A DNA stretch of 64,000 bases from Azolla caroliniana (taxonomy: Eukaryota; Plantae; Polypodiophyta), in contig JBHGNT010000006.1 in assembly GCA_043228905.1 (NCBI GenBank), positions 12,028,001 through 12,092,000 of the forward strand. The letters are read 5' to 3'. A program made the position numbers and the translations under genes. The notes beneath the pieces were generated by a model. It was not told the DNA's origin. It searched no databases and saw only the letters and a program-made list of their open reading frames with translations. The first letter of the stretch is position 1. Each line of letters starts with the position of its first letter. This document shows, piece by piece, positions 6,196 through 53,922 of this stretch.

Positions 6196-6406
6196 TAGAA
6201 ACCCAAAATAACGTTTTGTTGTATCATATGTATCCCACTCACCTCACCGCTTCTGAAATTTTAAGAAAAGAAAAGTCTTAACAAAAACACTTAGAAATAT
6301 ATACAAACAATTTAACAACAAAAGCAAGCAATCGGAGATTTGTGATTTTGTTCCCCTGATTGCTTGCATTGCCCATCCTTCTTCTTCTTCTTTTTCTTCA
6401 AGCACC

Positions 6407-12076: not shown

Positions 12077-12767
12077 TGTCATGGAGAAAACTGTCCCTAG
12101 GCGGAATCGGAGAATGATGTGCGCGAACCGGCCCTTACACGCGGGCACAAGTTTTGTTGTAATGTACATATTTGGGTACAAGTCGGCTAATGTGAATATC
12201 GTAGGTCGCACGGATTTGATAGGTAGGAAATCAAGGCATATCTCTGTCTGAAAGGACAGAGAATAAAGATGATGTAACAAGTTGTAACGGCCTCCCTCCT
12301 TGGGCTATAAAAGAGAGGGAGAGGAATCGTAAAGGGGATCGCTTTTGTCGAGGGCGAAGTGCTGTCGGACTGGGACCGAGCTCTTCTCCTCCGTCTTTCT
12401 CTGTATTTTGCTCTGTGCAGGTTTTGGAGAGGCTGACTCTGCTCCGCGGAACGCCCGAGTGCTTCTGGCAGAGTCTCCATCTCGCTCTTCTGTGTGTGTG
12501 TGCGTAGGCGTGGGAGATTCGTCGCTTACCGACCTGCCGGTTGTAACCCCTTATTCATTAGAATATATATATATATATATATATACATATACGCATTTGT
12601 CTCGTTTCCGTTGTTTCATTCGGTTGCGATTTCTGTGTACCTGTGTGTGTGTGTGTGTGGAAGCACGACCGTTGTCTTTCTTGCTCCTACTCCTGATCGG
12701 TTATTCCTCAGTCCAAGTCCCCCATGGTCCAGCCTCGTTCTATACGCACGCACGTAACAACGCGACA
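12077..12767 (+). repeat. 5' LTR of G1 (691 bp)
   Basis: Direct repeat of 18334-19022; contains CTATAAAA and TA/TG microsatellites. Confidence 0.95.
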
Positions 12768-12771
12768 TATT

Positions 12772-12789
12772 TGGTGAACCCGATGTGAA
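12772..12789 (+). promoter_or_regulatory. Primer-binding site complementary to the tRNA-Trp 3' end
   Basis: TGGTGAACCCGATGTGAA. One C>T change from the complement of the plant tRNA-Trp 3' end (...UUCACGUCGGGUUCACCA, from memory). Confidence 0.85.
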
Positions 12790-12812
12790 AAGGCGGCAGA
12801 GGAATAGAAAAT

Positions 12813-15800
12813 ATGAGGGGATCCGAGCTTGTTGAAGCTATGGCAGTAGTTGTCGACTGGCTAGTGAGTGCTCGTGAGGGAACGGGTGCCCTTAATAGGG
12901 CCATAGAATCGATTGTCGGCACCATAGCCTGATTCGGTGGGAAGAATGCCACGAGCTATTTGGAGGCCTATTGGGCTGAAATGATCATGAGGGACATCCC
13001 GGAGGACAGACGACTGTCTGGATTCCCTCGAGTGGTGACGCCGAGCATCCACGTGGAGGTGCTCGAGGTGCTAGCTGGATGCCAGGCTTGGGTGGAGCTC
13101 GAGGGGCGGCTCCTCGAGAAGTATGGGTACGACGATTCGCTTCAACTATCGAAGCGGGACTTCATGGCTTGGGCCTGGGAAGGGGAGGATCGGGAGAAGG
13201 TCGCTCTCCTATTGGAGACGGATGACGGCCTCACGGCCGACTAGGCTGTGGTCAAAGGGGTCTGCGCCCGCTTTGACAAGTGGCGCGAGGAGGTCTCGAC
13301 GGCGTCGGAGCCGGTCCCGGCAAGGAAGCTCGAGGAGCCGGTATCGGTGCCGGCTGGGAAGGAAGAGACTCGGAATTGGCTCGAGATGGGCCCAGCCTCA
13401 AGCGGAGTGGTCCAAGGCTCTTCTGGAGGAGCGGCTCTGGAAGAGCTGACGCAAATGGTGCGCGACCTCCAGATCGCACAAGCATGGAGGGACAACGGCG
13501 ATCAACCTCGTGATCGGAGGCCGCGGACGGGGCAACGATGCATGTGGTGTGACGCGGTCGGTCACATCCGGAAAAAATGCGCGGATTTCATAGAGGCACT
13601 TCGGGCCAACGTGGTGTACCTCTGGAATGGGCGGGTGCATGCCGGCGACACGCTGAAAGCCCTAGAGTTGAACAACGGGCGCGGCGGGATGAAGCGCTTG
13701 ATGGAAGAAGCCGCGACGCGACATGTAGAGGCCGTCCACTACTCCGGGTCGGGGGCGACGAGGGTCGAAAGGCGAAAGACCCCGGATTCTGGCTGCTGGT
13801 GCTGGAAGGCCTCTCCGGGGTACAGTTAAAGAAGGAGGAGGCGGACCGCGTGGAATAGCGGATCCGGGGGGTCACCGGATGGGACGATCCAGTTGAAGAG
13901 AAGATTGGCTTCGTGGAAGCCGCATGCCAGAACTACGGGGTTTTGGTAGAAGACAAGCGCGCGGGAAGGGCTAGAGAGGCCGGTCCCTCACAGCGGTACG
14001 AGACCCGGTTCAGACCAAAGCAGAACGATGCTGGCAACACCGGGGTGCCGAATAGAACGAAACGGGCCGGTTACCGGTTGAGCACGGAGATTGAAAGGTC
14101 AACGGACCTGCGGAAGGTCCTCGAGGAGCGGATTCTCGACAGCAAGGTGGAGCTGTCGCTGAGGAAGGTGCTCGGAATCGCCAAGAAGGAGTTCCACGAC
14201 TCCATTGTGGACTTCGTGAAGCAAAAGCGGTTCTCGATGGAATCGGGGCCGGAGAAGTTCGTGGAGGTGCGGATGACGCGCCTAGAAGACACAGCCCTAG
14301 AGGATGAGTTGGCGGACAGCTACTACGTGAAGCCACATTGGGCCAAAGCCACTATGGAGACCCCTGTTTGGGTTGGGGACGTGCAGGAGCCGGTGGTGGC
14401 ATTGATAGACCACGGCTCGAAGATCAACTAGTCCATGGACTTCTACAAAATGGGGAAGTGGCCGATCAACACCAAGCATGGGTGGAAGATACGCATGACG
14501 ACACACGCTACGAAGGAGCTGCATGGTGCGTGCCCGAATGTACGCATAAAGATCAACGACGTTGAGATAGATCAACACTTCTTTGTGCAGGAGACCTCCT
14601 CGCACCCGGTGATACTCGGCGAGCCATACATTACCGCGGCACGGATGGAAACGAAGGTGCTTGACAACGGATCGGCGTATTGTGCGCGTGAAGAGCCAAG
14701 ACGGACAACGCTCCGTTCAATTTTTGACGGTGAGGCCGAACCATGAGCGTAATCGTGAGACCCTCGGCGGCGAGAGCCGAGGGGATTTTTAGAGAGGGCT
14801 ATCAAGGCGTGGGGCCGGGCCGAGATAGTCCGGACTCCTTGGAAGAACCCCACGCATGTACCATAAATAGGAAATTTTGGTTCTCCGATAACGGAGGTTG
14901 TACTATAGCCGGCCTCAGTGGCCAGGAAAAGAAGCGAGTGGAAGAAAGACTCAGAGCGTACAGAGTCCTCGCCCCTGGCGAAGAGATTGGCGGTGCCGTG
15001 GAGGCAGTTTCCTTCGATGACACCTTGGGGGAATTACGCGAGGTTGTCGAGGGAGGCCTTAGTGAAGACCAGGCAGTTCTGGTTAGTTCAGTGGAGATGT
15101 ACGAAGTCATCGCTGACTTCGGGGAAAGGGTCGGGTTCGATCGGACGGCCCGAGTGGATACGAAGTACAAGATTGTGGACCGGAAGGCGAGACCAGTCGC
15201 GGCACCCTTGCTGGAGGGCAGCGAGTTACGGATGAAAGGGGTCGCGTCAGACCCAAGTTTAGGAGATCCGGCTGGCATAGGACACCGATTCACCGACATA
15301 ACGTTACGAGAGCTCAAGGTCGGTGGGGGTGGCTTTCTACTGCTGGCGGAGGAGGACCGGTTTCGGAGAATGCTCGAGAGGCACGGAAAGGCCTTCGCAT
15401 TCTCGCCGGAGGAGATCGGGTGCGTAGACCCGACGATTGTGGAACCAATGGTGATCTTCACGGTACCGCATGTACCGTGGAATCTCAAACCGATTCTAGT
15501 ACCCAGAGCTCACATCCCGAAGTTGATGGAGCTATTGAAACAGAAGGTGGATATGGGCATCCTCGAACCGTCGAGGGCCCCGTATTCTAATCAGTGGCTT
15601 ACCGTGCCCAAGAAGAACGACACATTGTGCTTCATCTAGGACCTACAACCGGTCAACAAGGTGACCATTCGGAACGCAGGAACCAGACCGACCATAGACG
15701 AGTTCGTGGAGGCCTTCGCCGGAAGGTCAATTTACTCGGTTGGTGATCTGTACTCGGGATACGATCAGTTCTAGCTAGCTGTGGAGAGTAGGGACATTAC

Positions 15801-18260
15801 GACGATGCAGACTCCTCTCGGCCTAGTACATATGTGTACCCTTCCGCAAGGAGGGACGAACTCGGTAGCCCACATGGTGAACGCAATGAACAAAGTGCTA
15901 AGGGATTGTATCCCAGACATCACCATGCCATTCTTAGACAACATCCCGATCAAAGGATGCCCGATGGAGGATAAGGACGAGACAATCGGACCGGACGGAT
16001 GCCGGAAGTTCGTGGCGGACCACGTCGATGACTGGGAGAAGGTGCTGCAAAGGCTAGAGGGCGCAAGGCTCACCTTCTCTGGGGAAAAATCGGCCTTCGG
16101 GAAATCGGAGATCATGGTCATCGAACACCTATGCGGGCCATTCGGTCAAAAACCGTCGCTGGCCAAGGTAGAGGCCATCTCCGCAATGAAGCGCAATTGC
16201 AATTCGGTCACGGAAGTCCGGAGATTCTTGGGAGCATGCGCGTTCTACCATATCTGGATCCCGCATTATGCCCATGTTGCGGAGCCGCTCTATGGATTGC
16301 TGAAGAAAGGGTGTAAAGTCGAGTGGAGAGAGGAGCATACGGAGTCAGTCCGAAAAATGAAAGGAGCACTTGTTGTGGCGCCGACACTCCGGAAAGTGGT
16401 CTACGGTAAAGACATTCCGATTTACGTGACCATAGACACGAGTCCGACCAGAATTGGATGGGTGATCAACCAAGAGGATGAGAATGGCACGAGGTTCCCC
16501 ATCCGGTTCGGCGCAAAAGTCCTCAGTGAACGACAGCGAGGGTATGCCCAGGTTAAACGCGAACTCTAGGGTATCGTTTCGGCGGTCAAGGCCGACAAAG
16601 ACTATCTGATTGGGATGGAGGTGATAATTGAGACGGACTGCCTGCCGATTCTCGGTATGGTTTCAAGATGTGTGATGCCGGACCTGGCAATGCTCAGGTG
16701 GATAGCGTACATCAAGTCCCTGAATCCGGAAATACGACACATTTCCGGAAAAGACAACGCCATGGCCGACATGCTTTCGAGGGCGAGATTCGATGATGAG
16801 GACAACATGGTTTTGGAGGACGAAGAAGTCGGCGTGGACTTCTTCGAGACGACTTACGTAACAACAAGGAAGGGGAGCACTCCGGCGCTTAACGAGTTCG
16901 ACGAGAGTAAGTATGACGGGGAGTGGCTCCAGACGGCGGGTTCCTGAAGACAATGACATTGGACATGGCGTGGACGAAGGAAGAGACCAACCGGATTCGG
17001 AAGAAAGCGTACCGATTCTTCTTACGGGATGGGTGCATATGGAAGCACCCGAAGAAGAGAAACGACATCCCGCTCCGGGTTGTGGCGAACAAAGAGGAAC
17101 AGGTGGAACTGTTGACAACGTACCATGAGAGTCCTTGGGCTGAATACTGCGGGACGTGGGCCACATTCGAGAAGCTAAAGGGGAAGTACTGGTGGCGGGG
17201 ACTATACCGGGACGTGCATCGGTTCATGACGGCTTGTGAAAGCTGTCAGATGCACTCCATAGTCCGACGTCGGGATGAGCTCCACCCGACCTACCCTCCG
17301 ACTATCCACTTCAAGTGGATTGTGGATATGGTGACGATGCCGATGGGGGTAGGGCAGATGCGATATCTGGTGCTGGCCCGAGAGGACCTGACAAACCAGG
17401 TGGAAGGCCGAGCATTGCCGAACAAAACGACCGCGGTCGTGTGCCGATTTCTGATCGAAGAAGTGGTATGTCGGTACGGGTGCGTAGGAAAGATCGTAGC
17501 CGACCACGGAGAACTGGATGCAAAGGAGGCTGAAGAGTTGTTTGACCGGCTAGGGGTTAAACTCTCGCTCACCACGGCGTACAATCCGGAGGCGAACGGG
17601 AAGGTGGAATGCGGACACGGGCCGATTGTCAAAGCGTTAGTGCGGGCATATGGAGGCCAAGTCGAAAATTGGCCGCGGCTCTTACCCTATGCGTTGTGGG
17701 CCGACCGAACTATGCATAGTTCGGTAACCGGGTTCATGCTGGCGGAGCTGATGTACGGGCAGAAGCCGGTCATGCCAATGGAGCGAACGATCTCCTCATG
17801 GGCCACGGTGGACTGGAGAGACGAGATGAGCCGGGAAGAGCTGTTAGCGGTGCGGATTCGACAGCTCGAGCGAAGACCGGAGGATGTGGAACGAGCCGCG
17901 GAAAAGCTGCGGGCCGCGAGTGTAAAGAACAAGGGGTGATTCGACCGGACTCACAGACTAAGGCCGAAGAAAATCGAGGAAGGCGACTGGGTTCTGGTAT
18001 ATGACAACAACTTCGACAACCAGCACAAGGCGATGTAGAAGTTCGCAAGGAGGTGGTTCGGGCCTTACGTGGTTACAAGCGCCAATGACAATGGGACCTA
18101 CCATCTCGCGGAGCTTGACGGGACGAGGATGGGAGTACCAGTGGCCGAGAAAAGGATCAAAGCGTTCAAAAAGCGGCACAAGGATGAACCGGACCTGGAT
18201 GACTTGGATAGCGAGGACGATTGGTTCGGAGCGAATGGCGATCCGGAGGACGAAGGGTAA
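12813..18260 (+). pseudogene. G1 gag-protease and RT-RNaseH-integrase coding region, degenerate
   Basis: ORF pieces 12960-13244, 13248-13829, 13913-14431, 14435-14746, 14743-15639, 15781-16569, 16615-16947, 16923-17939, 18069-18260 are colinear with G2. Confidence 0.9.
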
Positions 18261-18333
18261 GCGCGGGCCGGTCTTCTCCGGCAAGAGTTTATTTTGGTGC
18301 ATACCGGTGGATGCGCGGTTAGGTGGGGGCGGA

Positions 18334-19022
18334 TGTCGTGGAGAAAACTGTCCCTAGGCGGAATCGGAGAATGATGTGCACGAACCGGCCCTTACACGCA
18401 GGCACAATTTTTGTTGTAATGTACATATTTGGGTACAAGTCGGCTGATGTGAATATCCTAGGTCGCACGGATTTGATAGGTAGGAAATTGAGGCATATCT
18501 CTGTTCGAAAGGATAGAGAATAAAGATGATGTAACAAGTTGTAACGGCCTCCCTCCTTGGGCTATAAAAGAGAGGGAGAGGAATCGTAAAGGGGATCGCT
18601 TTTGTCGAGGAGGAAGTGCTATCGGACTGGGACCGAGCTCTTCTCCTCCGTCTTTCTCTGTATTTTGCTCTGTGCAGGTTTTGGAGAGAGTGACTCTGCT
18701 CCGCGGAATGCCCGAGTGCTTCTGGCAGAGTCTCCATCTCGCTCTTTTGTGTGCATGTGCATAGGCGTAGGAGATTCATCGCTCACCGTCCTGCTAGTTG
18801 TAACCCCTTATTCATTAGAATATATATATATATATATATACATATACACATTTGTCTCGTTTTCGTTGTTTCATTCGGTTGTGGTTTCTGTGTACCTGTG
18901 TGTTTGTGTGTGTGGACACATAACTGTTGTCTTTCTTGCTCCTACTCCTGATCAGTTATTCCTCGGTCCAATACCCCCGTGGTCCCGCCTCGTTCTATAC
19001 GCACGCGCGTAACAACGCGACA
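18334..19022 (+). repeat. 3' LTR of G1 (689 bp)
   Basis: Direct repeat of 12077-12767, preceded by the PPT and followed by TSD CCGG. Confidence 0.95.
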
Positions 19023-36073: not shown

Positions 36074-38579
36074 TGACGACACCGTACTTCGGCATCTTCT
36101 TCTTTCCCTTCTCTTCGCGCATAAGCTGTGTCCTAGACTTCCGATGCGGGGATTGCACGACCGAGTCTCCACTACTCGCCAACTTTGCGTTTGATTGGTC
36201 ATGCTGACTCGGTCACTCATTCAGCCCACTTAGCCTGAATGAGATCAGACTCTCTTCAGGAGCTCCGATGTTTGCTTCATCCCGAGGCATTTTAGCCTCG
36301 CTGACCTCTTCGTCAGAGATCGGAATGGAGTCGTCAGGGGTTGGAGGCGAGGGCAAGTACCACCACGCAGACTCGTCAAACACAACATCACGACTTACGT
36401 GAGCTTGTTTGGTTCGGGGGTTATAACACTTTTAACCCTTCAGTTCGTCGAGTAGCCAACCAAGATACACTTCTTGGCTTTGGCGTCCAGCGTCCTCCAT
36501 TTCCCCTTCGGCACATGCACATACGTGATGCTACCGAAAACCCTCAAGTGTGCCAAGTTCGGCTTCTTCTTGAAGTACAACTCATGTGGAAACACTCCTC
36601 CATTGGTAGATGCCCAATTCTGGAGGTAGACGACTGTTCTGATCACTTTGGCCCAATAGAACTTTGGCAGATGCTTCTCTTCAAGCATTGCCCTTCCCGC
36701 CTCCTCTATCGTCTGATTCTTCCTCTCGGCCACATTGTTCTGCTATGGCATGTATCTAAACCAGAATTCGCGTCGAATTCCCTCCTTTTGTAGATATCTC
36801 GAGAATTGGTTGGAGAAGTACTCCTTCCCACCATCGGACCTTAGGCACTTGATCTTTCTCCTAGTTTCCCTTTCCGCAAGGCTCTTTACTAGTAGGAAAC
36901 ACGCGAAGACATCTCTCTTTTTCGTGATCAAGTATGCCCAAGTGTGCCGAGTGAAGTCCTCGATGAAGGTTACGAAGTAACAACTTCCTCCGATGCTCAC
37001 GTTCTATGCCGGTACCCATACATTGGAATGCATCACATCGAGCGTATTTCGACTCCGATTACGCTCGTTGGGGAATGGAAGTCGACTCCAACAGATCACC
37101 GATAATCCATGACTGATGCATTTGCCAACGAGATTCGAAATAGTCTACAAAATCCCTCCAAGTTGCTCAAAAGGAGATGGACCTTGACCACTTCACCATA
37201 CAAGATGGTTTGTTATTCCACGATCATCTCTTATATGTCTCGGGGGGCTTGTGTCGCACCCGAGTATTGCGGGAATGCCACGATGACCCCCTTGCAGGTC
37301 ACTTCAGAGTTGCAAAAACCCTCGAGCTAATCTCTCGGGGGTACTAGTGGCCAAAACCATGGAAGTTGGTCAAAGAATACATCAAGACTTGTGAGGTTTG
37401 TGGTCGCTCCAAAGTGGCTCATCATTGCCCATATGGCTTGGTTCACCCGCTTCCATGTCCTAGTCGTCCCAGGGCCTCTATCTCTAGGACCTCATAACTG
37501 ATCTACCCTTGGTCAATAGCTATGACTCAGTGTTGGTCGTTGTTGATTGGTTTACAAAGATGGCTCACTTCACTCCATGCTCAAAAACCATTTCCAGCAA
37601 AGGAATGGCGCATCTACTCCTCAATAATGTCGTATGTTTTCATGGCCTCCCTGATGATGTCATCTCTGATCGCGGACCCCAATTTGTCTCTCACTTCTAG
37701 CAGCGCCTTCTGCAAACTTTAGGCATCTTGGTCAAGTTTTCCTCCGCCTATCACCCTCAGACTGACGGTAAGACGGAGTGCGTCAACCAAATCCTTGACC
37801 AATCACATTTGCTAACCCTTCGGCAGAGGGTTGAGCCCGGGTTTTAGAAGAGCTACATCATGACTTATCCTTGGAGCTTCGTCTCGTTGGTGAACAATAC
37901 AAGAAGCACGTCGATCGCCATCGCTCTGTGACTCCCCCCTTTGCCGTTGGCGACATGGTCTGGTGGTTATGATGGCACATCCCTACTACCCGTCCATGTG
38001 TGAAATTTGATTATAAGAAGTTGGAACCATTCTATATAGTTGAGCGCATTAATTCCATCGCCTTGTTGTCTGCCGGAATAGTAACCGATGGACAGAAGCA
38101 AAGAAGTATTATAATATAGTAAAAGCGTAAGAAACGTATGTAACGGTTCATGCAGGAAGCGTGAACGGCTAAAAGACCCTGTGTATATAAAGGGCAGATA
38201 TCCTCTATAAGAGGTAGTGTGTAATTTTGGTGCATAGAGCGTTATTTTAATAGAGTACTATCTTCTCTGATTTCTGTGCATATCTGTGGTTGATCTATTG
38301 TGTTCTTTGATTCTCGGCCACGTATTGTAATTGTAAGGGCGTAGGCGTAAGTGCGGTTACTAGTGCACTATCTAAGGAGTTCGGTTGTAGCCGTCTCCCT
38401 TATACACTACTAGGATACAGGGAAGTATCCCATTATGTATTACGGTACGACGATACCATTCTTTGCAACGTAGTCACCTTGAGGTCTAGGTTGAAGGACT
38501 GACCGTAGACCGTGTTCCTAATCAGTAACACTTTTGGCACGCAGACTGGTGATCTGTGTCTTCTCACAGATGAACAACG

Positions 38580-41500
38580 ACGAATGGATGTTTAGCCGTA
38601 GACGTCCCAAACAAGACCGACCAATCACAAGGTCCATCACACGCTAGGCAGAGGAGCGCGCAAGGTAAAAACCTCGCCTCAGTGACCTCAATGATATCTG
38701 TCAGGACCACAAAGTCGATTTCCCGCTCAACAAATACCTCGGCGACAAGCAGGAAGTTCGCTCACCACATAAGCATTCTGGTCTTTCCCTGCCCACCGTA
38801 GCGTCCAACATGGCTTTCTCTTATCCCCGGTTCAACGGCGAAACAGACGCTGCAACCCACATTCGCTTGTTCCTGAATGTCTGGAATGCAAATCACATGG
38901 CGCAGAGACTTCTCGAAGAGGTAGCACACTAGTCCAAAATGACAGATTTCAGATTAACTTTGGATGGGAGAGCGGCATTTTGGCATTCGCAGATGGATCT
39001 GCTAGCAATCACGACCTGCGACTAGCTGCAGTCGGCGTTTCTGCGTTTCTTCTATCAGAGAATGCCGTAACGCGAAATCCTCGGGCAGTTCTATACAATC
39101 AAATAGTTGCTGGCCGAGACTGTAGTGGACTTCAATTTATGCTTCCAAAATCTGTAGCGGAAATTAGAATGGGGCCCGACAGAGGACTAGGCTCGGGAGA
39201 CATTTCTGGCAGCTTTACAACGACCGATACGGTCGACGCTCAACAACAATAGTGTGAAAAGAGAAACATTTGATATGGTCATAGAATGAGCGCTACAGCT
39301 CGAGCTGGACGAAGAAGAGGAAAGGTTTTCCATGTCCTCATTACGACAAGCGTTAGCTCAGGACGAGGAACGACATTTTTGCTAGGCAATCCAGTGCATG
39401 ATTTGCCTCAATTCTGGGCATTTCGTAGTGGAATGCAACATGCGAATCCATTGCCCAATCTGTCACTCGAAAGCACTCACGGTCGAGTAGTGTGAGTAAA
39501 ATATGTTGAACAGACCCACGCCCATAGTACGAAGCGTAGAAACACAGCGCTGACGTCGTTGTAATGAGTAAAGGCGCCAAGAAGAACGACCCCGGTATAC
39601 GGATCGGAACCCACGCGATGACCGGCACTACCGAAATCTCTGGAATAACAATGATTCCGAGGAAGAAGACTACCGGGGCAACCATAGATATAATAAAGGA
39701 GGCCGACGCTACGAGAATTACCGTCCGATGAACAAACGTGGCAGCTTCAATGGGTCTCGTGGGAAACATCGTCAGTATCGGGAACAACGGCGGTATGACG
39801 AAAGTTCGGACGATGACTGACACCAGGAGCCGTGAGGGGACCAACAACAACCACCACGAACGCTCAGAAGAATGAACCAAGACCGGGAGGAGCAAGTCAC
39901 ACTTGGGGATAGGAACACACCACCAACTGCCAAGAAAGACAAATCCAACGTCCATTTTTTCGTTTGCCAACAACATGGAAATTACGCCACGCAATGTCCA
40001 CTAAGCAAGGGCAAGGGGCTCATCGTCAATATGATTATGGCGGAAGTTCAGCAAGTTACGACAAGACAGCAAACAAAAAATGTTGATTGGGCCGCGCAAG
40101 ATGAGATACGTCAGACGACCCAAGCATGGGTCGAAAAAGCGAACGCAGCAAATACGGAATGCATGCAGGAGTCCGCGAACAATGTGGGGCCAGTGGAGGA
40201 AGATGTAATATCTCCGGATCCCATATGGCAAGCACTGGCAGGCTGCGAGATAACACTGACCATGGAGAAGCTACTTCAACTAGTCCCACAGTTTCGCCAG
40301 GCCGTAGAGGATCGCATAACGGGCAGACCTAGGGTAAGTGTCTCCGCCAACTTTACGGACACCAGCGTCGGACCAACGGTGGTGGATTACCACAATCCGG
40401 CTATTAAGTTGATATTACACGGTCAGGAAATCACAGGATGCGTAATCGACGACGGCTCTGGCGTCAATGTAATTAGCGCGAATACATTCGAACAATTGAG
40501 AATTTCAGAATGGGAAGCTTGCCCGTTTTGGCTTCGCATGGTGGATACCCGCTCAGTAAGGCCTTTAGAATTAATACGAAAATTAGGCATTATCGTTGGC
40601 GGACATCGCTTCGACATCTCGGTGGTAGTCCTCGCCCTCGACGCCCCAGGAGCGTATCTTATGCTGCTTGGTAGACATTGGCTTCGTTCAGCGAATCTCA
40701 AACAGAGCTGGCAACATAAGTGCATCAGCTTTCGACGCGGACGCACCAAGGTTCACGTACCCACAAGGGAAATGGCGGCACAACCCAAGGGCCTAACACC
40801 GTTATATGTGGAAGATATAAATATGTTGGTTGGGGTGGATGATATAGAATTAGCAGTATACCTCGACGAGCACCCCCAAATCTTTCCGCTATTCGAAATC
40901 GACGTCATAGAAACCGCGGCGGAGTATGCCACGCCCACTGCGCTCCACGATGAGGCTTACGAACCAGACCTAGAGTCAATTTTAGAATTAAGCAGAGCAT
41001 GGGCGTAGTTTGAGAGGGAAATGGAAATTTCACGACGAGTCGCTGCCTCAGCCCTAGAAGAAGTAAACGTCGGTACGACGTCAGACCCTAATTCCTCTCC
41101 ATCGCAAAAGAATTACTGCCGGATCAGAGAGAGGTGATGATAGCACTACTCAGGAAGTATAAAGATGTGTTCGCTTGGTCCCATGAGGATATGAAGGGAT
41201 TAGATCCGAAGTTCTATCAACATAAGATCAATTTAGTGACCGATGCGAAACTGGTCCAGCAACGTCCATACCGCATGAACCCAAATTATGTGGCTCACGT
41301 AAAAGAGGAAATTGACAAACTCCTCAAGGCCGGATTCATTCGACTAGTCAAACAAGCTACATGGCTAAGCCCGATAGTAGTCGTACCAAAGAAAAATGAC
41401 AAAATACGTGTGTGCGTGGACTACCGAAAATTGAACGTCGTAACCATTACAGGCGCGTTCCCTTTACCTTTCACCGACAGCGTACTGGATGCTGTCGTAG

Positions 41501-43763
41501 GGCATGACATGTACAACTTTTTAGATGACTTCAGTGGGTACAATCAAGTACGCATGCACCCCAACGACCAAGAGAAGATGACGTTTGTCATAGACTAGGG
41601 AATCTATGTCGCGGTCGTCATGATGTTTGGGCTAAAGACGGTGCCGGCTACATTTCAACGGACAATCACGGGAATTTTTGGGGAATATATAACTGCCTTC
41701 ATGCAGGTCTTTTTACATGATTTTGCGGTATATGGGACAGGAGCCGAACATTTTACGCATCTACAGCTTTGCCCGGAGTGTTGCCGAACTGCATGCTTAA
41801 GCCTAAATCCCGCCAAATGCGCCTTTGGCGTCACCAATGGGGCCCTCCTCGGCCACCTAGTTAGTAAGGAGGCGATAGCGGTCGATCCGAACAAAATCTC
41901 CGTGATTACTCATGCAAAAACACCGACAAACGCGAAAGTACTCAGCCGGTTTTTGGGACAAATACAATGGCACAACCGGATGATACGCTATTTGGCGGAT
42001 TTCGCCACACCATTACATGTCGTTGTTCACCGTACTCCTTTTAAATGGACAACAATGGAGGAGAAGGCGTATGATGCACTAAAAATAATGCTAACGTAGG
42101 AACCAGTGTACAGCCACTAGTTTGGGCGAAACCATTTCACGTGTTTGTGGATGCCTCAGATATAGCGATAGGTAGTGCGCTGATGCAACTCACAAAGCCG
42201 AATTGGTACTGACCAGTGTACTATGCTAGTCAGAAACTATCAAAGGCTGAGCGTAACTATTCCACAACGGAACGTGAAGCGTTGGGTATGATATACAACA
42301 TCAATAAATTAGGGCATTATCTGCTAGGGCAAAAATTCACGTTTCACGTGGATCATACGACATTGCTATATCTGGTGGGGAAACAGGTACTGACGGGAAA
42401 ATTGGCTAGATGGATGTTGTTGCTCCAAGAATTTGACTTTGTAATTCAACACTGACCAGGTACGCAACACGTGGTGGCGGATTTCTTGAGCAGACTAGAT
42501 AATGGAGAAATGGCGCAAAAAGATGACGATAATTTCCGGACGTGGACATTCTGCGTATAGCAACTTTAGTAGCAAGAACAGAAAAGACTTTTCCGGATCG
42601 GTGGTTGATGGAAATGACCTACTTTCTAACCACAGGGTTACCGCCACCAAAATTAAGGACGGACGAGAAAAAACGGCTAGCCGTACGGAGTCGTAATTTC
42701 TATTTAGTTGAAGACGTCCTATATCACAAAGGCAGTGACGACATTTGGAGGCGCGGAATACAGCAGGATGAGAAGGCAACGGTTTTATGTGAAGCCCACT
42801 ATGGTATGGCGGGAGGACATTATGCGGGCGATGTTACGGCTCGAAAAATCTGGCAAGCAGGACTTTGGTGGCTGACTACGCAAAAAGATGCGTATGAATA
42901 TTGCAAACAGTGCGATTTATGCCAACGGATGGGCCAATCCACGGAAGTTGCGAGAATGCCACATCAATTGGTGTTGCCGTTGGATCCTTTCCAAAAGTGG
43001 GGGCTGGATTTTGTGGGACCCTTTACCCCGACAACTGCTCGAACAGGCAATAAGTATATCCTGGTGGCTATGGATTACTGCACCAAGTGGGTAGAAGCGA
43101 AAGCACTATGCGAAAATACCGCGGCAGTCACGACGAAATTCCTTTGCGAACATATCTGGTGTCGTTTTGGCTGCCCTATCGAGCTCATTAGTGTCCAAGG
43201 GAGTTCCTTTTTGAATACAGTCATCCGTAAACTAACCCAACACTACGCTGTGGTTCACAAAAAGAGTACGCCGTATTACCCATAGGCAAATGGCTTGGCC
43301 GAATCCACGAACAAAACATTACAAACTATCCTAAAAAAGATAGTCAATGAGAACAGTACGAGACCGGCTGCTAGAGGGCAAATCTGAACAAATGCGACTA
43401 CAACAATTGCTAGAACTAGGCATAACCCGGGTACGCAGTATGGCCATATTGGAACAAGAACAACGGTGGCGCAAAGCATTCGTGGACCGACATTGGCATG
43501 CGCGTGAAAAGGATTTTATGGTCAGGAAGGCGGTATTAGTTTTTCAAACACACATGGGGCAAATGCTAGGAAAATTAAGATTCCACTGGACAGGCCCATA
43601 CTTGATAGTTGGAGCGGAAAATGACACGTTTCAACTTGGCACCTTGGCCGGAGAGGTGCTCCGGCAAAAGGTGAATGGGTTTTGCTTAAAACCCTACCTG
43701 GGGCCTAAGACACTTAACTCGTTCCCCGCCGAACAGGACAAAGCCAGCGAATCCGTGGAGTAA
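38580..43763 (+). pseudogene. G3 gag-pol, degenerate
   Basis: ORF pieces 39872-41008 (knuckle remnant + PR), 41134-42099 (RT), 42216-42455 (RH), 42542-43763 (INT). Start coordinate approximate. Confidence 0.88.
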
Positions 43764-43820
43764 GTATAGGGCTCTACTTGTACTGTAGTGTACAAATAAT
43801 ATTGTATGTAACTGTTATGA

Positions 43821-43890
43821 AAGAAGAAGAAGAAGAAGAAGAAGAAGAAGAAGAAGAAGAAGAAGAAGAAGAAGAAGAAGAAGAAGAAGA
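43821..43890. repeat. (GAA)n microsatellite, about 23 units, between pol and the extra ORF of G3
   Basis: Directly visible. Confidence 0.95.
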
Positions 43891-45203
43891 TAGCGACGCT
43901 ATTAAAAGGACTTGATGCATGCACAAACTTCTAGAGCAAGAACACACGACACCACGATGGCTCACAGACCAATGAACCCTAGGCCACAAAAAGAAGAAAA
44001 TAGAAGGTTTTCTGCACAGTACAGAAACCAACCTTCTAACTCTCATCGCTCTCATCACTCCCCTCACTCACCTTCCTCTCCATCCTACCATAGAGCCCAA
44101 GTTCGCCATAACCAACATACCTCACCCACTATCCACGAGTCTCACCCTCCTACGGTGCCGATCCCTATTTCCTGCCACCTTGCGTAGATGGCTCGTCGAG
44201 AAGCGTCTGGATGGATACATCAAAGTCGCCGAGGTACCCACTCATCTTAAAGCCCTGGACATCGTCAAGAAACTCAATATAGACACGGTCACCAACTCAT
44301 CAATTCGGAAGAAGCTTGACCTATCATCGTTCGGAGAAAGACATTTTGACATTCCTCCAGCGGAAACCTTGTAGAGATATTTTGAGGCATATTCAGCGTC
44401 CGCCAAGGCATACAGGACGAAGGAAATCCCCGATCCCTTCTTCTGCGAAATAGCCAAGTTCTTGTTGGAAGTCGGATGCTTGCATGTAAATTGCCTATGG
44501 GATGCCAAAACAGAAGGCATGCAGCATCATTGATACCTTCGAAGGGCGCGCGGTCGATTAGGGGGTCATTACGGGACCAATGTTACAGGAAGGCCTGCAC
44601 GCGTATCAAGGCGGCAAAAAGCTAAGGCCGATCATACAATAGTATCTGATGATACTATTCCCACCCCAGGGTCTGCCTGCACCACAACCCAGCAAGCCCA
44701 CACCGCCGCCACGTTTTGCGAAACGGAGGTTAGCGGAATTGGTCACCAAAAAATGGGAGGATGAACCCCAATCGGCCCAACCCAGCATGCGGACAACACA
44801 TGAAGAATGGCCGGAGCGCAGGGAAGAAGCCCCGCAGGAGCAGGAAGCCGAGCAACGTCAGGAAAGCCCGAGGTTGAAACGGCAGAGGTTGGACAGGAAA
44901 GATGGGCGCGGATTAGTTAAAGACACACTAGCGGCCGTAGCTACGGAGCCCAACACCACTTTCGAAATAATCCGGGAACCACGACCGATCATTATGGCCC
45001 AGTCTCAGCGGGGGAAGGCGTATTTACAGCAGAAAGCGAGTTCCTGAAGTATCCGGATATTCCGGACACAGGCCACGAGTTCGGTGCACTATTACAGTTC
45101 GGCACTACTTACGAACTCATGGAATTTTTGGCAACACAACAAATAAAAGTCTCACAACGAATGGCCGAGGAGCACGCGGAGCAACAAATGATTGAGTGCA
45201 CGT

Positions 45204-48200
45204 TGTCGTGAAGAAAACCGTCCACAAGCGGAATCGGTGCACCGGAGCGTAGGAACCGGCTCTTCATGCACGTACACCTTATGTTGTACATAAGAGAGAA
45301 TTAGGTACATAGAAGATCCTAGGTAGGTAGATTCGGTAGGTAGGAAGTTAATGGGAAACAGCTCCTTTCTTGCCTATAAAAGGAGGGAGACGGGGAGGAG
45401 GAAAAGGGGGGATCGCGGTTAGAGAAGACGAAGTGCTGTCGGGTTGTCGGCCGAAGGCTTCTCTCTCTTCCATACTCCGTAGCTTCTTCTTGTGCAGGTT
45501 TTCGGGGAGGCTCGCGCTGCTCTGAGGAATGCCCAAGTGCTTCCGGCAGCACCTCCAACCTACTCCTTTCTTTCTGAGTGTTTACGAACAGGCATCGACA
45601 TCTGTTCGCCGGCCTTTTCGGTTGTAACCGACTTCGGGCTTCTTGTTGTTTGTCCTTGTTAATATATATATACATACATTCGTGTCTCTCTGCGTCGGTG
45701 TCCCACTCGCGTCTTTGTGTCGAAGGGCCGTGTCCCTGTGAATCTACGCCCACACGTAGTGGGTCCCTTCCCTTCTCCTTTGTCTCTTGCTCTTCGGTAC
45801 AAGACCCCCGAGCCCCCGCCTCATTCCACGCATCCATGAGGAATACCTCGACATCTTGGTGAACCCGACGTGAAAGAGGCGGCAGAAGAGCAGAAGATGA
45901 AGGGGTCGGATCTTGCGGAGGCCATGGCTTCGGCCGTGGATCGGATATTGAGCGCACGCAAGGGCACCGACGCCCTCTATAGAGCCATTGAGGTGGTCGT
46001 CGGTACGATTGGCCGGTTCAGCGGAAAGGATGCCACGAAGTATTTGGCGTCCTACGGGGCAGAAATGTTGATGCGGGGCATTCCGGAAGAGAGGCGTCTT
46101 GCCAGGTTCCCTCGAGTGGCGATGCCGAGCATCCATGCGGAGGTGCTCGAGGTACGGGTGGAGAGCCGTACCTGGGAGGAGTTCGAAGGCCGACTCCTAG
46201 AAAAATACGGGCTGGATGACGCGCTCCGGCTTGCGAAACGGGACTTCATGGAATGGGTGGAGTCCCCCCCGGCAAGGGAAGAAACGCGTCGGCACTCCTC
46301 CGGGAGTTTGAGGAACGCTTTGCGCGCCTTTCGGCGCTTGACCGAACCGTTCTGGATACGAGCCGGGTCCTACTGTTCGTCAAGTCGGTGGACGAGCGGG
46401 ACCGGGATCAAGTCGGCTCCTTGCTGGAAACCAAAGACGGGCTGACGACCGACTGGACTGCGGTTAAGAGAGTCTGTGGCCGTTTCGACAAACGGCGAGA
46501 ATGGGCTGATAACGGGGCGGCCGGTGCGGGCTCTGTCACAGCAAGGAGGCTTGAACCGGCCCCGCAAGGGCGAAGGGAAGAGACCCGGGAGTGGCTCGAA
46601 ACCGGTTCGGCTTCGACCGGCATGGTCAATGGCTCGTCCGGAAGAGCAGCGCTGGAGGAGTTGACGTGGGCGATAAAGGATCTCCAGATCGCCCAGGCTC
46701 GAAGGGAAGGCGGCGAACCGGCTCGTGACCAGCACTTCTTTGTGCAGGAGACGTCCTCGCACCCGGTCATATTAGGGGATCCATACATCACGGCGGCGCG
46801 GATGGAGAACAAGCTGCTAGACAACGGTTTGGCCTACGTGAGGGTCAAAAGCCAGGACGGGCGCCATTCGGTCCAATTTCTGACGGTGCGACCGAACCAC
46901 GAGAGAAACCGCGAATCCCTCGGTGGTGAGAACCGGGAGGTTTTTTAGAGAGGGCTGCCAAGGCATGGGGCCGAGACAGTCCGGACACTCGGGAAAGACC
47001 CCACAACTGTACGATAGAACCGAAACCGAAGAAACCTTGTACGATAGGTAGAAAATTTTTCTTCTCCAACGACGGTGGGTGTATGATAGTCGGCATCGTT
47101 GGCCGAGAAAAGGCAAGGGCGGAGGAGCGACTTCGAGCGTGCGGAGTTCTCGGCCCGGACGAGGAAATCAGCGGAGCCGTGGAGGTGGTCTCCTTCGACG
47201 ACACCTTGGGGATACTGAGGGAGGTAGCTGGAGAAGACCTTAACGAAGACCGGACGATACCGGTATGTTCTGAAGAGATGTACGAAGTCATCGCGAACTT
47301 CAGTCAGGGGCTCGGGTCGGATCGGACGGCCCGGGTTAGCACGAAGTACAAGACTGTGGACCGGAAGGTAAGGCCAGTCGCAGCACCCTTACCGGAGGGC
47401 AGCGAGTCCCGGATCAGAGGGGTTGCGACGGACCCCAGTTTGCGAGATCTGGTCTGCATAGGACACACCTTCACCGACGGGACGCTCTGGGAGCTCAAAA
47501 TCGGTGGGGGCGGGTTCCTACTGCCAGCGGAGGAAGACCGGTTTCGGAGAATGCTCGGAAGGCACGGGAAAGCCTTCGCATTCTCACCATAAGAGATCGG
47601 GTGCGTAGACTCGACAATCCTGGAGCCGATGGTGATATTCACGGTACCGCATGTGCCGTGGAATCTCAAGCCGATTCCAGTACCGAGAGCTCACATCCTG
47701 AAGTTGATGGAGCTATTGAGGTAGAAAGTCGATATGGGCATTCTCGAACCGTCGAGTGCCCCATACTCGAACCGGTGGTTTACCGTACCAAAGAAAAACG
47801 GAACATTGCGCTTCATTCGAGACCTGTAGCTGGTCAACAGAGTGACCATTCGGAACGCAGGAATCAGACCGACCATAGACGAGTTCGCGGAGGCCTTCGC
47901 CGGAAGGTCGATTTACTCGGTCGGTGACCTGTACTCGGGGTACGACCAGTTCCAGCTAGCCGTTGAGAGCAGAGACATTACGACCATGCGAACTCCCCTT
48001 GGCCTAGTGCGAATGTGTACCCTGCCACAAGGAGGGACCAATTCGGTGGCCCACATGGTGAATGCAATGAACAAGGTACTGAGGGATTGCATCCCGGACA
48101 TCACCATGCCATTTCTAGACGACATCCCGATCAAGGGGTGCCCGGTGGAAGAGAAGGACGAGACACTCGGGCCGGACGGATGCCGACGATTCGTGGCAAC

Positions 48201-51165
48201 ACACATCGACGACTGTGAGAAGGTGCTACGAGGGCTAGAGGTTGCGAGGCTCACCTTCTCCGGGGAGAAATCGGCCTTCGGTCAATCAGAAATCCTGGTG
48301 GTCGGACACCTATGTGGACCATATGGCCGGAAGCCGTCCCCGGCAAAGGTAGAAGCCATCTCCGCGATGAAGACCGACTGTAGCTCGGTTACGGAAGTTC
48401 GGAGGTTCCTGGGGGCGTGCGCATTCTACCACATATGGATCCCGCATTACGCCCACGTTGCGGAGCCGCTATACGGGTTGCTGAAGAAGGGGCGAAAATT
48501 CGAGTGGCGAGACGAGCACACAGAGTCGGTCCGGAAGCTGAAGGAAGCTCTTGCGGCAGCACCGGCGCTCCGGAAGGCTGTCTACGAGAAGGGTACCCCG
48601 GTATACGTAACGGTGGATACGAGTCCGACCGGGATCGGATGGGTCATCAACCAAGAAGACGAGGACGGCATTCGGTTCCTGATCCGATTCGGCGCAAAGG
48701 TCCTCAGTGAGCGACAACGAGGGTACGCCCGGGTTAAACGCGAACTCTAGGGTATCGTTTCGGCAGTAAAGGCCGACAAAGACTACTTGATCGGGACAGA
48801 AGTGATTATCGAGACGGATTGCCTGCCAATTCTCGGCATGGTCTCCGGATGCGCGACACCGGACCTGGCGATGCTCAGGTGGATAGCGTACATCAAGTCC
48901 TTGGACCCGGAAATACGACACATTTCCGGAAAGGACAACGCCATGGCCGACATGCTTTCGAGGGCGAGGTTTGATGACGAGGGCGTCATGGTTTCGGAGG
49001 ACGAAGAAGTCGGCGTGGACTTCTTCGAGGCGGCGAACGTGACGACCGATGGGGCGAGCACTCCGGCACTTAACGGCTTCGACGAGAGCAAGTACGACGG
49101 CGAGTGGCTACAGATCGGTGGTATTTTGAGGACAATGACGCCGGATGCGTCATGGACGAGGGACGAGGCCAACCAGATCCGGAAGAAAGCATACCGATTC
49201 TTTCTCCGGGACGGATACTTATGGAAGCACCCAAAGAAGAGGAACGACGTCCCGCTCCGGGTGGTGGAGATGAAGGAAGAACAAGAGGAGCTGCTGACGG
49301 CCTACCACGACAGCCCTTGGGCTGGACACCGTGGAACGTGGGCCACGTTCGAGAAGATAAAGGGGAAGTACTGGTGGCCGGGACTGTACCAGGACGTGCA
49401 TCGGTTCGTGACAACTTGCGAGAGCTGTCAGATGCACTCCATAGTCCGACATCGGGACGAGCTTCACCATACGTACCCTCCGACCATCCACTTCAAATGG
49501 ATGGTAGATCTGGTGACGATGCCGATGGGAGTAGGACAGATGCAGTATCTGGTTCTGGCTCGGGAAGATCTGACGAACTAGGTGGAAGGCCGAGCCCTTC
49601 AGAACAAAACGACCGCGGCCGTATGTCGGTTCCTGATCGAGGACGTGATATGCCGGTACGGGTGCGTCGGGAAGATCGTGGCTGATCGCGGGGAGTTGGA
49701 CGCCGAAGAGGCCGAGGAGCTGTTCGACCGGCTAGGAGTCAAGCTGTCGCTTACCACTGCGTACAATCCGGAGGCGAATGGGAAGGTGGAGCACGGACAC
49801 GGACCGATCGTCAAGGCGTTAGTTAGGGCATGCGGAGGTCAAGTCGGGAACTGGCCGCGGCTGCTGCCTTACGCGTTGTGGGCTGACCGAAGTACGCACA
49901 ATTCGGTAACCGGATTCATGCCGGCAGAGCTCTTGTTTGGGCAGAAGCCGATCATGCCGATGGAACGTACAATCTCCTCATGGGCAGCCGTGGATTGGAG
50001 AGACGAGATGAGCCGGGAGGAACTGTTGGCGGCGCGCATACGACAGCTCGAGCGAAGACCGGAGGACGTGGAGCAGGCTGCGGGAAAGCTTCGGGTGGCA
50101 AGGACGAGGAACAAAGCCCGGTTCGATAGGACGCACCGGCTCCGACCAAAGAAGATTGAGGAAGGCGACTGGGTGCTAGTCTACGACATCAGCCTCGACA
50201 ACCAGCACCGAGCGACACGGAAGTTCGCAAGAAGGTGGTTCGGGCCTTACGTGGTACAAAGCGCCAACGACAACGGGACGTACCATCTGGCAGAACTTGA
50301 CGGCACGAGAATGGCGATACCGGTAGCTGGGAAGCGGATCAAAGCGTTCAAGAAGTGTCACGACGACGAGCCGGATCCGGTTAACCTGGACCGCGACGAC
50401 GAACGATCCGAAACCGAGGAAGAACCGACGGGCGGGGAATGAAGGCTGGACCGGTTTTCTCCGTCCCAACTCAATTTGGCGCATGCCGGTGGATGCGCGG
50501 TTAGGTGGGGGCGGATGTCATGAAGAAAACCGTCCACAAGCGGAATTGGTGCACCGGAGCGTAGGAACCGGCTCTTCATGCACGTACGCCTTATGTTGTA
50601 CATAAGAGAGAATTAGGTACATAGAAGATCCTAGGTAGGTAGATTCGGTAGGTAGGAAGTTAATGGGAAACGGCTCCTTTCTTGCCTATAAAAGGAGGGA
50701 GACGGGGAGGAGGAAAAGGGGGGATCGCGGTTAGAGAAGACGAAGTGCTGTCGGGTTGTCGGCCGAAGGCTTCTCTCTCTTCCATACTCCGTAGCTTCTT
50801 CCTGTGTAGGTTTTCGGGGAGGCTCGTGCTGCTCTGAGGAATGCCCAAGTGCTTCCGGCAGCACCTCCAACCTACTCCTTTCTTTCTGAGCGTTTACGAA
50901 CAGGCATCGGCATCTGGTCGCCGGCCTGTTCGGTTGTAACCGACTTCGGGCTTCTTGTTGTTTGTCCTTGTTAATATATATATACATACATTCGTGTCTC
51001 TCTGCGTCGGTGTCCCACTCACGTCTTTGTGTCGAAGGGCCGTGTCCCTGTGAATCTACGCCCACATGTAGTGGGTCCCTTCCCTTCTCCTTTGTCTCTT
51101 GCTCTTCAGTACAAGACCCCTGAGGCCCCGCCTCATTCCACGCATCCGCGAGGAATACCTCGACA
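45204..51165 (+). mobile_element. Gypsy element G2 (relative of G1), internally deleted, nested in G3
   Basis: 650-bp LTRs 45204-45853 and 50516-51165, roughly 3% different by my manual count. TSD ACGT/ACGC, PBS 45857-45874, PPT AGGTGGGGGCGGA. RT DLYSGYDQF / FLDDI, RH and INT colinear with G1. Confidence 0.95.
45857..45874 (+). promoter_or_regulatory. PBS, 18-nt complement of the tRNA-Trp 3' end
   Basis: TGGTGAACCCGACGTGAA, 3 nt after the LTR end. Confidence 0.88.
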
Positions 51166-53922
51166 ACGCTAACACAAACAACGGAAAGCGATGATGAGGG
51201 GCCGCTAGCCAGACTAGGCAGACAACAGAATGTCAGGATACACCGAATGGGAATTGAACTACCCCCATTCAACGCGGCCCTCGTCGAGGTTCATAGGGAA
51301 CTAGCAAAGGTCAGTCTTGGAGTCAAGGATATGGTGATTAAAAATGAAAATTCTGGAAAACGGTTAAACAGACCCAAGCTGAGCTACAAAAGGCCAACGA
51401 ATGCATCACGGAGTTAGAACGTAACGCGACTACGGCACAACAGGCATCTCGACCAATAGACAATGCCGCCGAGGCCTAGTCCCTGAGAGAAGAGGTTGAA
51501 GCACAGACCGCCATTGCCTCGAAAGCAAAGAGGGCCGTGCAGCTGGCGGAATTGGAGATTGACCGCCTCCGCTCTGAACTTCGCCAATCCGCTGACAGAG
51601 AAAAGGACATTCGGGCCAACGGCCGAAAGGCAGTGAAGACCCTTGAAGAGAAACTTATAGCGGAGGCAACACAACACACCTGCGCGAAAGAAGAAAACTC
51701 CAAACTACGGGAGGAAGTGCAGAAATCGGAAACAATGATCACGGGACTCCGGGCGTTATTGGAAAAGAAGAAAGCATGGTTCGATGAGTAGCCTGTACGG
51801 GAACAGGAAAGGCGGCATCAGCTCGAAATCCGCTTGAACAATGAAATGGGAAATCTGGAGGAGTTACATTCGAAGAAATCTCCGCTATGGGCAGGAATGA
51901 GGAGCAATTATGAGGAAGCGGCGGCAGTCAGTAAACAAGAAATCGAAAACCTCAAGAAAACCGTGGAAGAAGCACACAACCGCTGCCAAGCAATAACCGA
52001 CAACGTGTGCATACTTCTTCAAACAAATCGGGAGAGGTTTAGGACGCAATTACAAGCGGCTCTAGAGAAAGGATGGATGGCGTGGGCTGCACAAGTGGCG
52101 GAGTTGCATACTTACCGGTCGGACTGGGAGAACCGAAGAAAAGATGGCTGAGGTTTCTACAAACTCAATGAGGAAAGCATTGCGGCAGTACGCGAGGACC
52201 TAGTGCAGGATTATCACACGCTAGCGGACCAACACTCCGAGGAACTCGCGCAACTACTAGACGATTTTGGCGAAAGTCAGGAGGACATGTTTCACCAAAT
52301 CATGCAAGCCGGCAACACGCGACCAAATGAGGAATCCATCCTGATACCAGTAAAGGATACTGTTGAACGAGAGGAACCTCAACCCACGTCATCGGAAATA
52401 ACCACTACGGTGGGCAGCACAGAACAAGAAGCGGAGCCCCCCACGATACCCGAAAGTGAGACTGCCGAACAGGACGAACCTCAGCCCCATTCACTGGAGC
52501 GTACAACCACGATTGGCAACACGGAGGAAGTTACGGACAGGACAAAGCCTCAACCTCCCGAGAGCCCACAGGTGGATGAGCCAGCTGCAGTAGAATGGGA
52601 GGAGCCAATAGAGCCCGGACCGCCCACACCAGGAGACCTTAACACCATGGAAAGCCCCACCGAGCACGTACAAGACATGGAACCGCGTAACAACGCATCT
52701 ACGGACACTACCCCGTCCCCGGACTAGGACATCAGGGCGGAACCAAACATCCGTGCCATTTTGGAGGAAGATTAAAGGAGTGGGTTTGACGTGCCATGGC
52801 ACTGTCCCATAGGCGTGCCAGGTGTTGTCCGTTGGAATAGTAACCGACGGACAGAAGCGAAGAAGTATTATAATATAGTAAAAGCATAAGAAACGTATGT
52901 AACGGTTCACGCGGGAAGCGTGAATGGCTAAAAGACCCAGTGTATATAAAGGGCATAAATCTTCTGTAAGAGGTAGCGTGTAATTTTGGTGCATAGAGTG
53001 TTATTTTAATAGAGTACTATCTTCTCTAATTTCTGTGCATATCTGTGGTTGATCTACCGTGTTCTTTGATTCTCAGTGACGTATTGTAATCGTAAGGGCG
53101 TAGGTGTAAGTGCAGTTACTAGTGCATTGTCTAAGGAGTTCGGTTGTAGCCATCTCCCTTATACGCTACTAGGATACGGGGAAGTATCCCTTTATGTATT
53201 ACGGTACGATGGTACCATTCTTTGCAACGTAGTCACCTTGAGGTCTAGGTCGAAGGACTGACTATAGACCATGTTCCTAATCGGTAACACGCTTTCCGGC
53301 TAGCCCTTCTGTCCCACTTCCGGATTCATGATGTTTTCATGTCTCCCTCCTCGAGCCCCATTATCCTTCACAAATCCCAGGATGCCAGGCCCCTCCACAA
53401 TCCCCTGTGGAATTGACGACAGGCGAGGAATACGAGGTCGACCAAATACTTGACTCACGTTTGCATCATCGACACCTGCCTCAAGATTTTCATCGCTGAT
53501 ATCCCCACAAACCGGTGACAGGTTTGGGAAGGCGGCGTAGGAGGGGGGATAATGTCACATCTAGGATGTGACTTGAAACTGTGACCTGTGACACACCCAA
53601 TATGTAGTATTAGATAAACCATTTGGAAACCCTTAAGTTATATGTAAGTTTGTATATGGTGCATATTGTACAACATAGCATATAGAATATTCTAGTCTTT
53701 AGTTTATTCTAGAAATATTCTATGGTATATTCTAGATGAGTATATTCTAGAGATATTTCTTAGGTATATTCTAGAGATTTTCAATCTCAAAACTTGTATA
53801 AATATGTGTGTTCATCTATATTATAATCAAGGTGAACAATACCAATTAGGGAGTCTTTCGATTAATCAACTCATCCCTCTGATTATCTTGTACTCTCTTG
53901 TGTATATTTTCTACCCGTGACA

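Follow-up and report, generated by a model that had tools for sequence, protein, structure and literature searches.

The protease/RT junction of a Phygy-like Ty3/gypsy retrotransposon family carries a conserved cassette of slippery heptamer, spacer and stem that, judged from sequence comparison, is real and very likely programmed (probability roughly 0.85) and likely drives −1 frameshifting. The cassette was analysed in G2, a broken copy in a 64-kb stretch of Azolla caroliniana DNA, hereafter called the window, where the heptamer is a rare variant of the family form. For a sister clade of the −1 elements, a −2 shift is predicted.

The cassette in G2 and in related loci

In G2, the slippery heptamer G_GUU_UUU (46939-46945; G_GAU_UUY in the family) was found in frame of the gag-protease (gag-PR) ORF 46220-46948, followed by a 6-nt spacer (46946-46951) that begins with the gag-PR stop codon TAG (46946-46948). 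Stem 1 consists of a 5' arm at 46952-46959 and a 3' arm at 46975-46982. Its loop contains TGGGG (46966-46970), the 5' strand of a predicted stem 2, with the complementary CCCCA at 46999-47003 as 3' strand; stem 2 is shortened in G2 by A46965, where the family mostly has G. Heptamer, stop, spacer, stem arms and loop complementarity had been proposed in a first-pass annotation of the window, and all were recovered by direct reading of the forward strand, on which all strand-specific features of G1 and G2 lie.

An Rfam search of 46800-47150 returned no matches at E 5. Folding of G2 compared with shuffled sequences gave z-scores of −0.51 for the 65-nt cassette and −1.66 for the hairpin, which alone is not beyond chance, and a loose heptamer-plus-stop pattern yielded 2 matches versus 2.63 expected. 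What raises the G2 cassette above chance is the evidence of the family, namely the fixed position, phase and spacer together with covariation.

Among 78 related loci, most of them from one assembly series in which assembled repeat contigs represent collapsed copies, scoring as far as the first gag-PR stop was possible in 72. With no structure filter applied, this stop was directly preceded by G_GAU_UUU in 33/72 loci and by G_GAU_UUC in 4/72 (37/72 together); the remaining scorable loci were mostly broken copies, had the stop a few codons further on or were deletion forms. Long frames on both sides were the basis for retaining 24 of the 78 loci; the other 54 had short frames or ran into contig ends and were left out. 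The retention filter also required 7 of the 8 stem pairs; frame lengths anchored at the stop selected the same 24 loci. In each of these, a heptamer of slip type stands in phase with gag, the spacer is fixed and the 8-bp stem is the same. The heptamer is GGAUUUU in 18 loci and GGAUUUC in four; all 22 have a 6-nt spacer, and their pol lies in the −1 frame. In the remaining two loci, GGUUUUU is followed by a spacer of 5 nt, and pol occupies the −2 frame. Absence of the stop from young copies, considered in the first-pass annotation, was not observed, the gag-PR frame ending 0-5 codons past the heptamer in all 24 long-frame loci. None of the 22 −1 loci had an upstream ATG in the pol frame, and no stop occurred in their −1 frame over 200+ codons or before the locus end; in L004, pol was open for 833 codons to the locus end.

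Stem 1 pairs were found to covary across the family. In 16 distinct alignment rows, including G2, 124 of 128 cells were paired (96.9%), 4 of 8 pairs were changed on both sides and 15 cells showed changes on both sides. The observed value was reached by 0/500 shuffles, a count that is not a probability since the alignment rows are related, and slid controls were 25-44% paired. In several clades, stem 1 extends to 11-12 bp. As had been pointed out earlier, an A-T pair of the second copy in the window, G1, is replaced in G2 by G46957-C46977, with C46958·A46976 unpaired. At this pair, A-U was present in nine of the 16 rows, G·U in three and G-C in two, and two rows were unpaired. Both the G-C pair and the C·A mismatch are common to L004 and L005, and a G·U intermediate step is present in L001 and L002, which bears out the reading of G-C as a true compensatory change; judging by the alignment, it is inherited by G2 from its subfamily.

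Homologous proteins ended in DF-stop in 42 of 63 cases. A second protein search (n = 120), which included proteins of Physcomitrium, Adiantum and Riccia, gave 42 DF-stop ends, 33 ends in DF plus five residues and three in VF[DY]-stop; in a broad search of representatives, many of which were fragments or gene models, 19/139 ended in DF. Ends in DF, some of them extended by the five residues, are repeatedly seen for gag-protease in proteins of Physcomitrium, Adiantum and Riccia (P0209, P0226, P0294, P0302 and others), and these protein ends suggest a signal spanning mosses, liverworts and ferns. Searches for relatives in viral contigs and prokaryote genomes found none.

Six loci (L058, L060, L061, L062, L065 and L072) are gag-protease-only forms lacking RT, RNase H and integrase, in which the LTR starts, mostly with a polypurine tract, at most about 80 nt from the protease-frame stop. 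From their sequences, these are likely non-autonomous deletion families.

In the proposed mechanism, ribosomes with tRNA-Asp and tRNA-Phe on G_GAU_UUY would be paused by an H-type pseudoknot whose stems 1 and 2 comprise 8-12 and 4-8 bp, respectively. Most ribosomes would run into the stop 0-5 codons past the heptamer and release Gag-protease, and a minority would slip by −1 to produce a Gag-PR-RT-RH-IN polyprotein. The signal sits 3' of the protease and not 3' of gag; because of this placement, the level of protease would follow that of Gag, and RT and IN alone would be limited.

A predicted −2 shift in the sister clade

The two GGUUUUU loci, L044 and L047, carry cassettes at L044:2497-2565 and L047:2739-2807 in which AG_GUU_UUU and 5 nt of spacer precede a stem of 10-12 bp; a stem 2 of 8 bp is possible. 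The gag-PR frame is open for 760 codons in L044 and 286 in L047, and pol for 819 and 817 codons, respectively, in the −2 frame, up to the locus end in both; the −1 frame closes after five codons in L044 and after zero in L047. In a midpoint-rooted pol tree of 20 rows, from which four loci were left out as too short, L044 and L047 form one clade (100/100 support; 76.9% nucleotide and 84.9% protein identity) that is sister to the −1 elements.

The L047 junction was covered by a single 292-nt contig of run X7 with a depth of 2431 and no gap, and no indel was listed there in 55 contigs of run X1; runs X21 and X22 had no contigs matching L047, a result that may be a false negative. In the P0212 cluster (35 members, 15 listed), all six listed members that reach the end finish in QVFD. 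In view of the X7 contig, the X1 contigs and the QVFD ends, a private deletion or an assembly slip is unlikely.

On the evidence of two loci and the protein ends, we lean towards the reading that RT of L044 and L047 is expressed by a pseudoknot-driven −2 shift at AG_GUU_UUU without a helper protein, and that this signal would have derived from the −1 signal via GAU to GUU and a spacer shortened from 6 to 5 nt. With GUU, tRNA-Phe in the A site could form new pairs two bases back, and a spacer of 5 nt would favour −2. According to passages of published work, the PRRSV −2 site matches the L044/L047 motif (PMC7618472), spacers 1-2 nt shorter favour −2 on U6A (PMC3458567), and a shorter spacer favours −2 on GG_GUU_UUU (PMC4937337). 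A −2 shift with a 5-nt spacer also keeps the junction length of a −1 shift with 6 nt.

That pol would instead be reached by +1 on UUU, or by reinitiation at an upstream ATG, we regard as less likely. A +1 and a −2 shift lead to the same frame, L044 has UUU_U, the pol frame of each locus has an ATG upstream, at a distance of 4 or 7 codons, and P-site re-pairing in −2 would be poor, as in PRRSV. However, +1 in L047 requires tRNA-Phe to re-pair on UUG, the upstream ATGs are at different places in the two loci, and the change from GAU to GUU is needed for −2 only. Taking together the GUU re-pairing, the PRRSV motif match, the short-spacer rule and the junction length, which a −2 shift would keep as in the −1 relatives, we infer −2 rather than +1. 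The idea of −2 products, raised in the first-pass annotation for G2, fits the sister clade and not G2, in which the −2 frame is open for just 35 codons.

The parallel drawn earlier with cardioviruses and arteriviruses holds in that G_GUU_UUU is a known shift site, but the signals of these viruses need a viral protein and differ in structure and spacer. With the nsp2 signal of the arterivirus PRRSV, L044 and L047 share the AG_GUU_UUU motif, an early or immediate stop in the −1 frame and a long −2 frame; RG_GUU_UUU combined with a long −2 frame was found in these two loci and not in G2. According to source passages, the arterivirus −2 signal has a protein-bound C-rich motif 10-11 nt downstream, and the PRRSV signal depends on nsp1β and a poly(C)-binding protein, lacks an RNA structure and has a spacer of 9-11 nt, whereas the structure in L044 and L047 starts 5 nt past the site. 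An arterivirus-type signal was rejected for these loci, the likeness being at the slip site only and a 10-12 bp stem lying 5 nt downstream. The cardiovirus 2B* type was discarded as well; according to the literature, it needs a stem-loop 13-14 nt downstream and the 2A protein, and the spacer here is 6 nt (G2) or 5 nt (L044/L047). Three natural −2 cases are given in passages of a 2016 review, namely phage Mu, arteriviruses and Trichomonas vaginalis virus 1 (PMC5009743). If the −2 reading is true, L044 and L047 would provide a naturally occurring example of the spacer-length rule, hitherto demonstrated with reporter constructs, and the sister clades would form a matched natural pair, with −1 and predicted −2 shifts on the same fold. 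Such a pair would make the mRNA-tension model of shift direction testable (80-nt insert).

Stem 2, the splicing alternative and the G2 heptamer

Stem 2 is possible in 19/19 distinct loci with 4-8 bp, at a score of 186 versus 140 ± 8 in shuffles, 0/2000 of which reached it. In a partner-swap test, 522/20000 swaps reached the observed score, and own loop-partner pairs ranked first in 3/12 loop families. Stem 2 is based on G/C runs and is less well supported than stem 1. Single folds of G2 and its relatives were mostly not better than shuffles (z −0.5 to −3.4); since single-sequence folding cannot score pseudoknots and was mostly non-significant, it was dropped as a test.

A stimulator made of a stem-loop or of two adjacent hairpins, with no pseudoknot, is a less probable but serious candidate: swap-test support for stem 2 is modest, and in three of the 19 loci (L024, L037 and L054) stem 2 scores below a local hairpin that directly follows stem 1. 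Against it, pairing of the loop with the downstream strand is possible in all 19 loci and better in 16 of them, and the downstream strand of stem 2 changes along with the loop in L024, L037, L039, L044 and L047, which speaks for the pseudoknot. As a side observation, the competing hairpin of L024, L037 and L054 lies in the 30 nt that follow stem 1 and might form a two-state switch with stem 2.

The main alternative to frameshifting as such is that pol is reached by splicing, with the U-run and AG serving as a 3' splice acceptor as in the Ogre intron; this we consider very improbable. An AG occurs within 7 nt of the heptamer in 20/24 loci, and in Ogre an intron separating GAG-PROT and RT provides a precedent (passages of PMC6317226). 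However, four of the 24 long-frame loci have no such AG, and the AGs fall into three pol-frame phases (13, 5 and 2). The pol frame has a protein-like sequence from the heptamer onwards, and splicing needs no fixed distance to a covarying stem. Gene-model proteins of Physcomitrium and Adiantum that read past DF are predictions and were not counted as evidence of splicing.

With −1 frameshifting retained as the preferred reading, the G2 heptamer itself was considered. Contigs of four sequencing runs, from three organisms and three studies, had A at 46941 in 100449/100498, 45518/45526, 40657/40716 and 251581/251637 depth units, corresponding to 99.85-99.98% of contig depth; G at 46965 made up 86-99% of depth in the same contigs. 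Of 185 variant rows, 40 were listed, and 46957, 46958 and 46977 were not among these; for this reason, the stem covariation was taken from the loci and not from reads. The first-pass annotation had regarded G_GUU_UUU of G2 as a functional alternative shift site. Selection for this site in a subfamily that is active, in the manner of cardioviruses and arteriviruses, would be in line with the known slipperiness of G_GUU_UUU, with the phase and spacer kept in G2 and with the fixation of this heptamer in L044 and L047. Nevertheless, we hold this to be highly unlikely: less than 0.15% of depth in the four runs was without A at 46941, L004 and L005, which share the G2 stem, carry G_GAU_UUU, G_GUU_UUU with a 6-nt spacer is otherwise present only in L028, which has short frames, and G2 itself is broken. 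From the contig depth and the heptamers of L004 and L005, it follows that G_GUU_UUU in G2 is a rare variant, found in a copy without protease or pol capacity; by analogy with the known site, it may still slip.

Decay of dead copies as the origin of stop and frame offset, for which it could be said that G1 and G2 are both broken and that U-runs are indel-prone, is excluded at the family level by the same layout in 24/24 long-frame loci across the clades of the pol tree and by the covarying stem, in agreement with the earlier judgement of a programmed signal. For annotation, this means that stops and frame offsets at the protease/RT junction should not be scored as decay.

The elements in the window and their relation to known systems

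G2 is a Phygy-like Ty3/gypsy LTR retrotransposon (45204-51165), a broken copy of 5.96 kb with a deletion. Its 650-nt 5' LTR (45204-45853) is 97.2% identical to the 3' LTR (50516-51165; K2P 0.028), and the element is flanked by a 4-bp target duplication (ACGT/ACGC). The polypurine tract at 50503-50515 was read directly. The primer-binding site (45857-45873), a putative tRNA-Trp site, has a motif common to related loci; it was found in 14/24 long-frame loci, including L044 and L047, and the other ten had no match, several ending before the LTR. ARAGORN detected no tRNA in the 64-kb window, and the literature search for the primer-site motif gave only unrelated matches.

The gag-protease remnant (45897-46948) was delimited by tblastn with P0006, a relative of 717 aa; its frame is broken near 46268, and it ends with the TAG at 46946-46948. 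In P0006, the protease motif is found at residue 590, and the protein terminates at the homologous stop. A deletion of ~1.06 kb at 46727-46730 removes the gag Cys motif, DUF4100 and the protease active site; G1 13513-14570 and P0006 residues ~288-645 have no match in G2, and family contigs of sequencing runs diverge from the window sequence at this junction. The pol frame (RT-RNase H-integrase; 46945-50442) is −1 relative to gag-PR and has stops at 47590, 47722, 47827, 48748 and 49579. The earlier statement that the −1 frame is open without correction applies to its first part, which reads as quoted there (46930-47592, 215-220 codons), but the frame closes at 47590, the first of these five in-frame pol stops. 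With the active site deleted and five stops in pol, G2, as read from its sequence, is unable to make protease or pol, and its signal is without a product to serve.

G1 (12077-19022, 6.95 kb) is 79.7% identical to G2 over 3.9 kb. The divergence of LTRs that had been noted before is true of G1 versus G2 (K2P 0.38) but not of G2's own two LTRs, which differ little. In G1, the homologous cassette (14783-14868) has G_GAU_UUU, and a 5-nt duplication in the stem loop shifts the pol frame; the −1 frame closes after 25 codons, and pol is in the −2 frame. This was read as decay and rejected as a programmed layout, since the loop duplication is present in no long-frame locus and the heptamer is G_GAU_UUU. 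Folding of the G1 hairpin gave z −3.76 against shuffles, and its loop can form 8 bp with a downstream strand. Just past stem 2, at 47003-47032, G2 is ~30 nt longer than G1, in frame and with a short repeated motif at both ends. Between gag and protease, the G1/G2 family has DUF4100 (PF13352; 13859-14428); a link between DUF4100 and retrotransposons was not found in the papers searched.

A Pfam scan of the G1 and G2 frames revealed RT, RNase H and integrase domains in gypsy order and found no chromodomain. The order gag-PR-RT-RH-IN with neither chromodomain nor extra RNase H corresponds to Phygy, the moss Ty3/gypsy lineage of Neumann 2019, with which the family also shares a 4-bp NCGN duplication, a short non-chromovirus layout and close Physcomitrium homologues. 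Target duplications of ACGT/ACGC and CCGG/CCGG fit the NCGN rule, and Physcomitrium proteins match the protease end at 66-75%. In passages of PMC6317226, a typical length of 7.7-10 kb is listed for Phygy and its ORF organisation is given as not determined; we use the label 'Phygy-like' because G1 and G2, at 6.95 and 5.96 kb, are below that range. The family fills this gap in ORF layout: its −1 signal, which covaries, lies 3' of the protease. Ogre/Retand elements of the Tat clade likewise end the first ORF after the protease (PMC6317226, in part); they have a spacer/intron or a single in-frame stop and an extra RNase H, whereas the frames here overlap at the slip site.

Features expected of a −1 signal were found in the family, with an in-phase heptamer in 22/24 loci, a 6-nt spacer in 22/22 and a long −1 frame without its own start in 22/22. 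Spacers of 5-9 nt to the 3' structure are given for −1 signals in a passage of PMC7618472. G_GA heptamers are known from −1 signals of umbraviruses, dianthoviruses and insect flaviviruses, which, in the passages of PMC5009743, have the same G_GAU_UUY, 6-nt spacer, 3' structure and stop close behind; here, the signal is predicted and located in a plant LTR retrotransposon. In position, it is like the pro-pol shift of MMTV and HTLV (PMC5009743, in part), but with gag and protease in one frame there is one shift only. For plant LTR elements, passages of this review list only +1-frame cases from a 2003 survey (PMC5009743). A prior description of either signal was not found in the literature searched, including parts of PMC7466625 and PMC12786077, a search in which subscription papers were thinly covered and the 2003 survey was represented through the review.

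The combined gag-PR frame followed by pol also recalls the avian retroviruses. In these, the protease is part of gag. The likeness is a lead only, as a review passage puts the avian protease in pol.

Several other features were observed in the window. G2 is inserted into the 3' part of an older, unrelated gypsy element (38064-53290), which has LTR-like repeats at 38064-38531 and 52823-53290 that are 91.9% alike and an RT about 24% identical to that of G2. Diverged repeats in inverted orientation, about 71% alike, at 36512-37081/63427-64000 and 56114-56595/57731-58217 are probably remnants of other mobile elements. A long open frame at 6257-7921 has a Cys/Met metabolism PLP-enzyme domain (E 3.7e-78), resembles methionine gamma-lyase and is probably a host gene.
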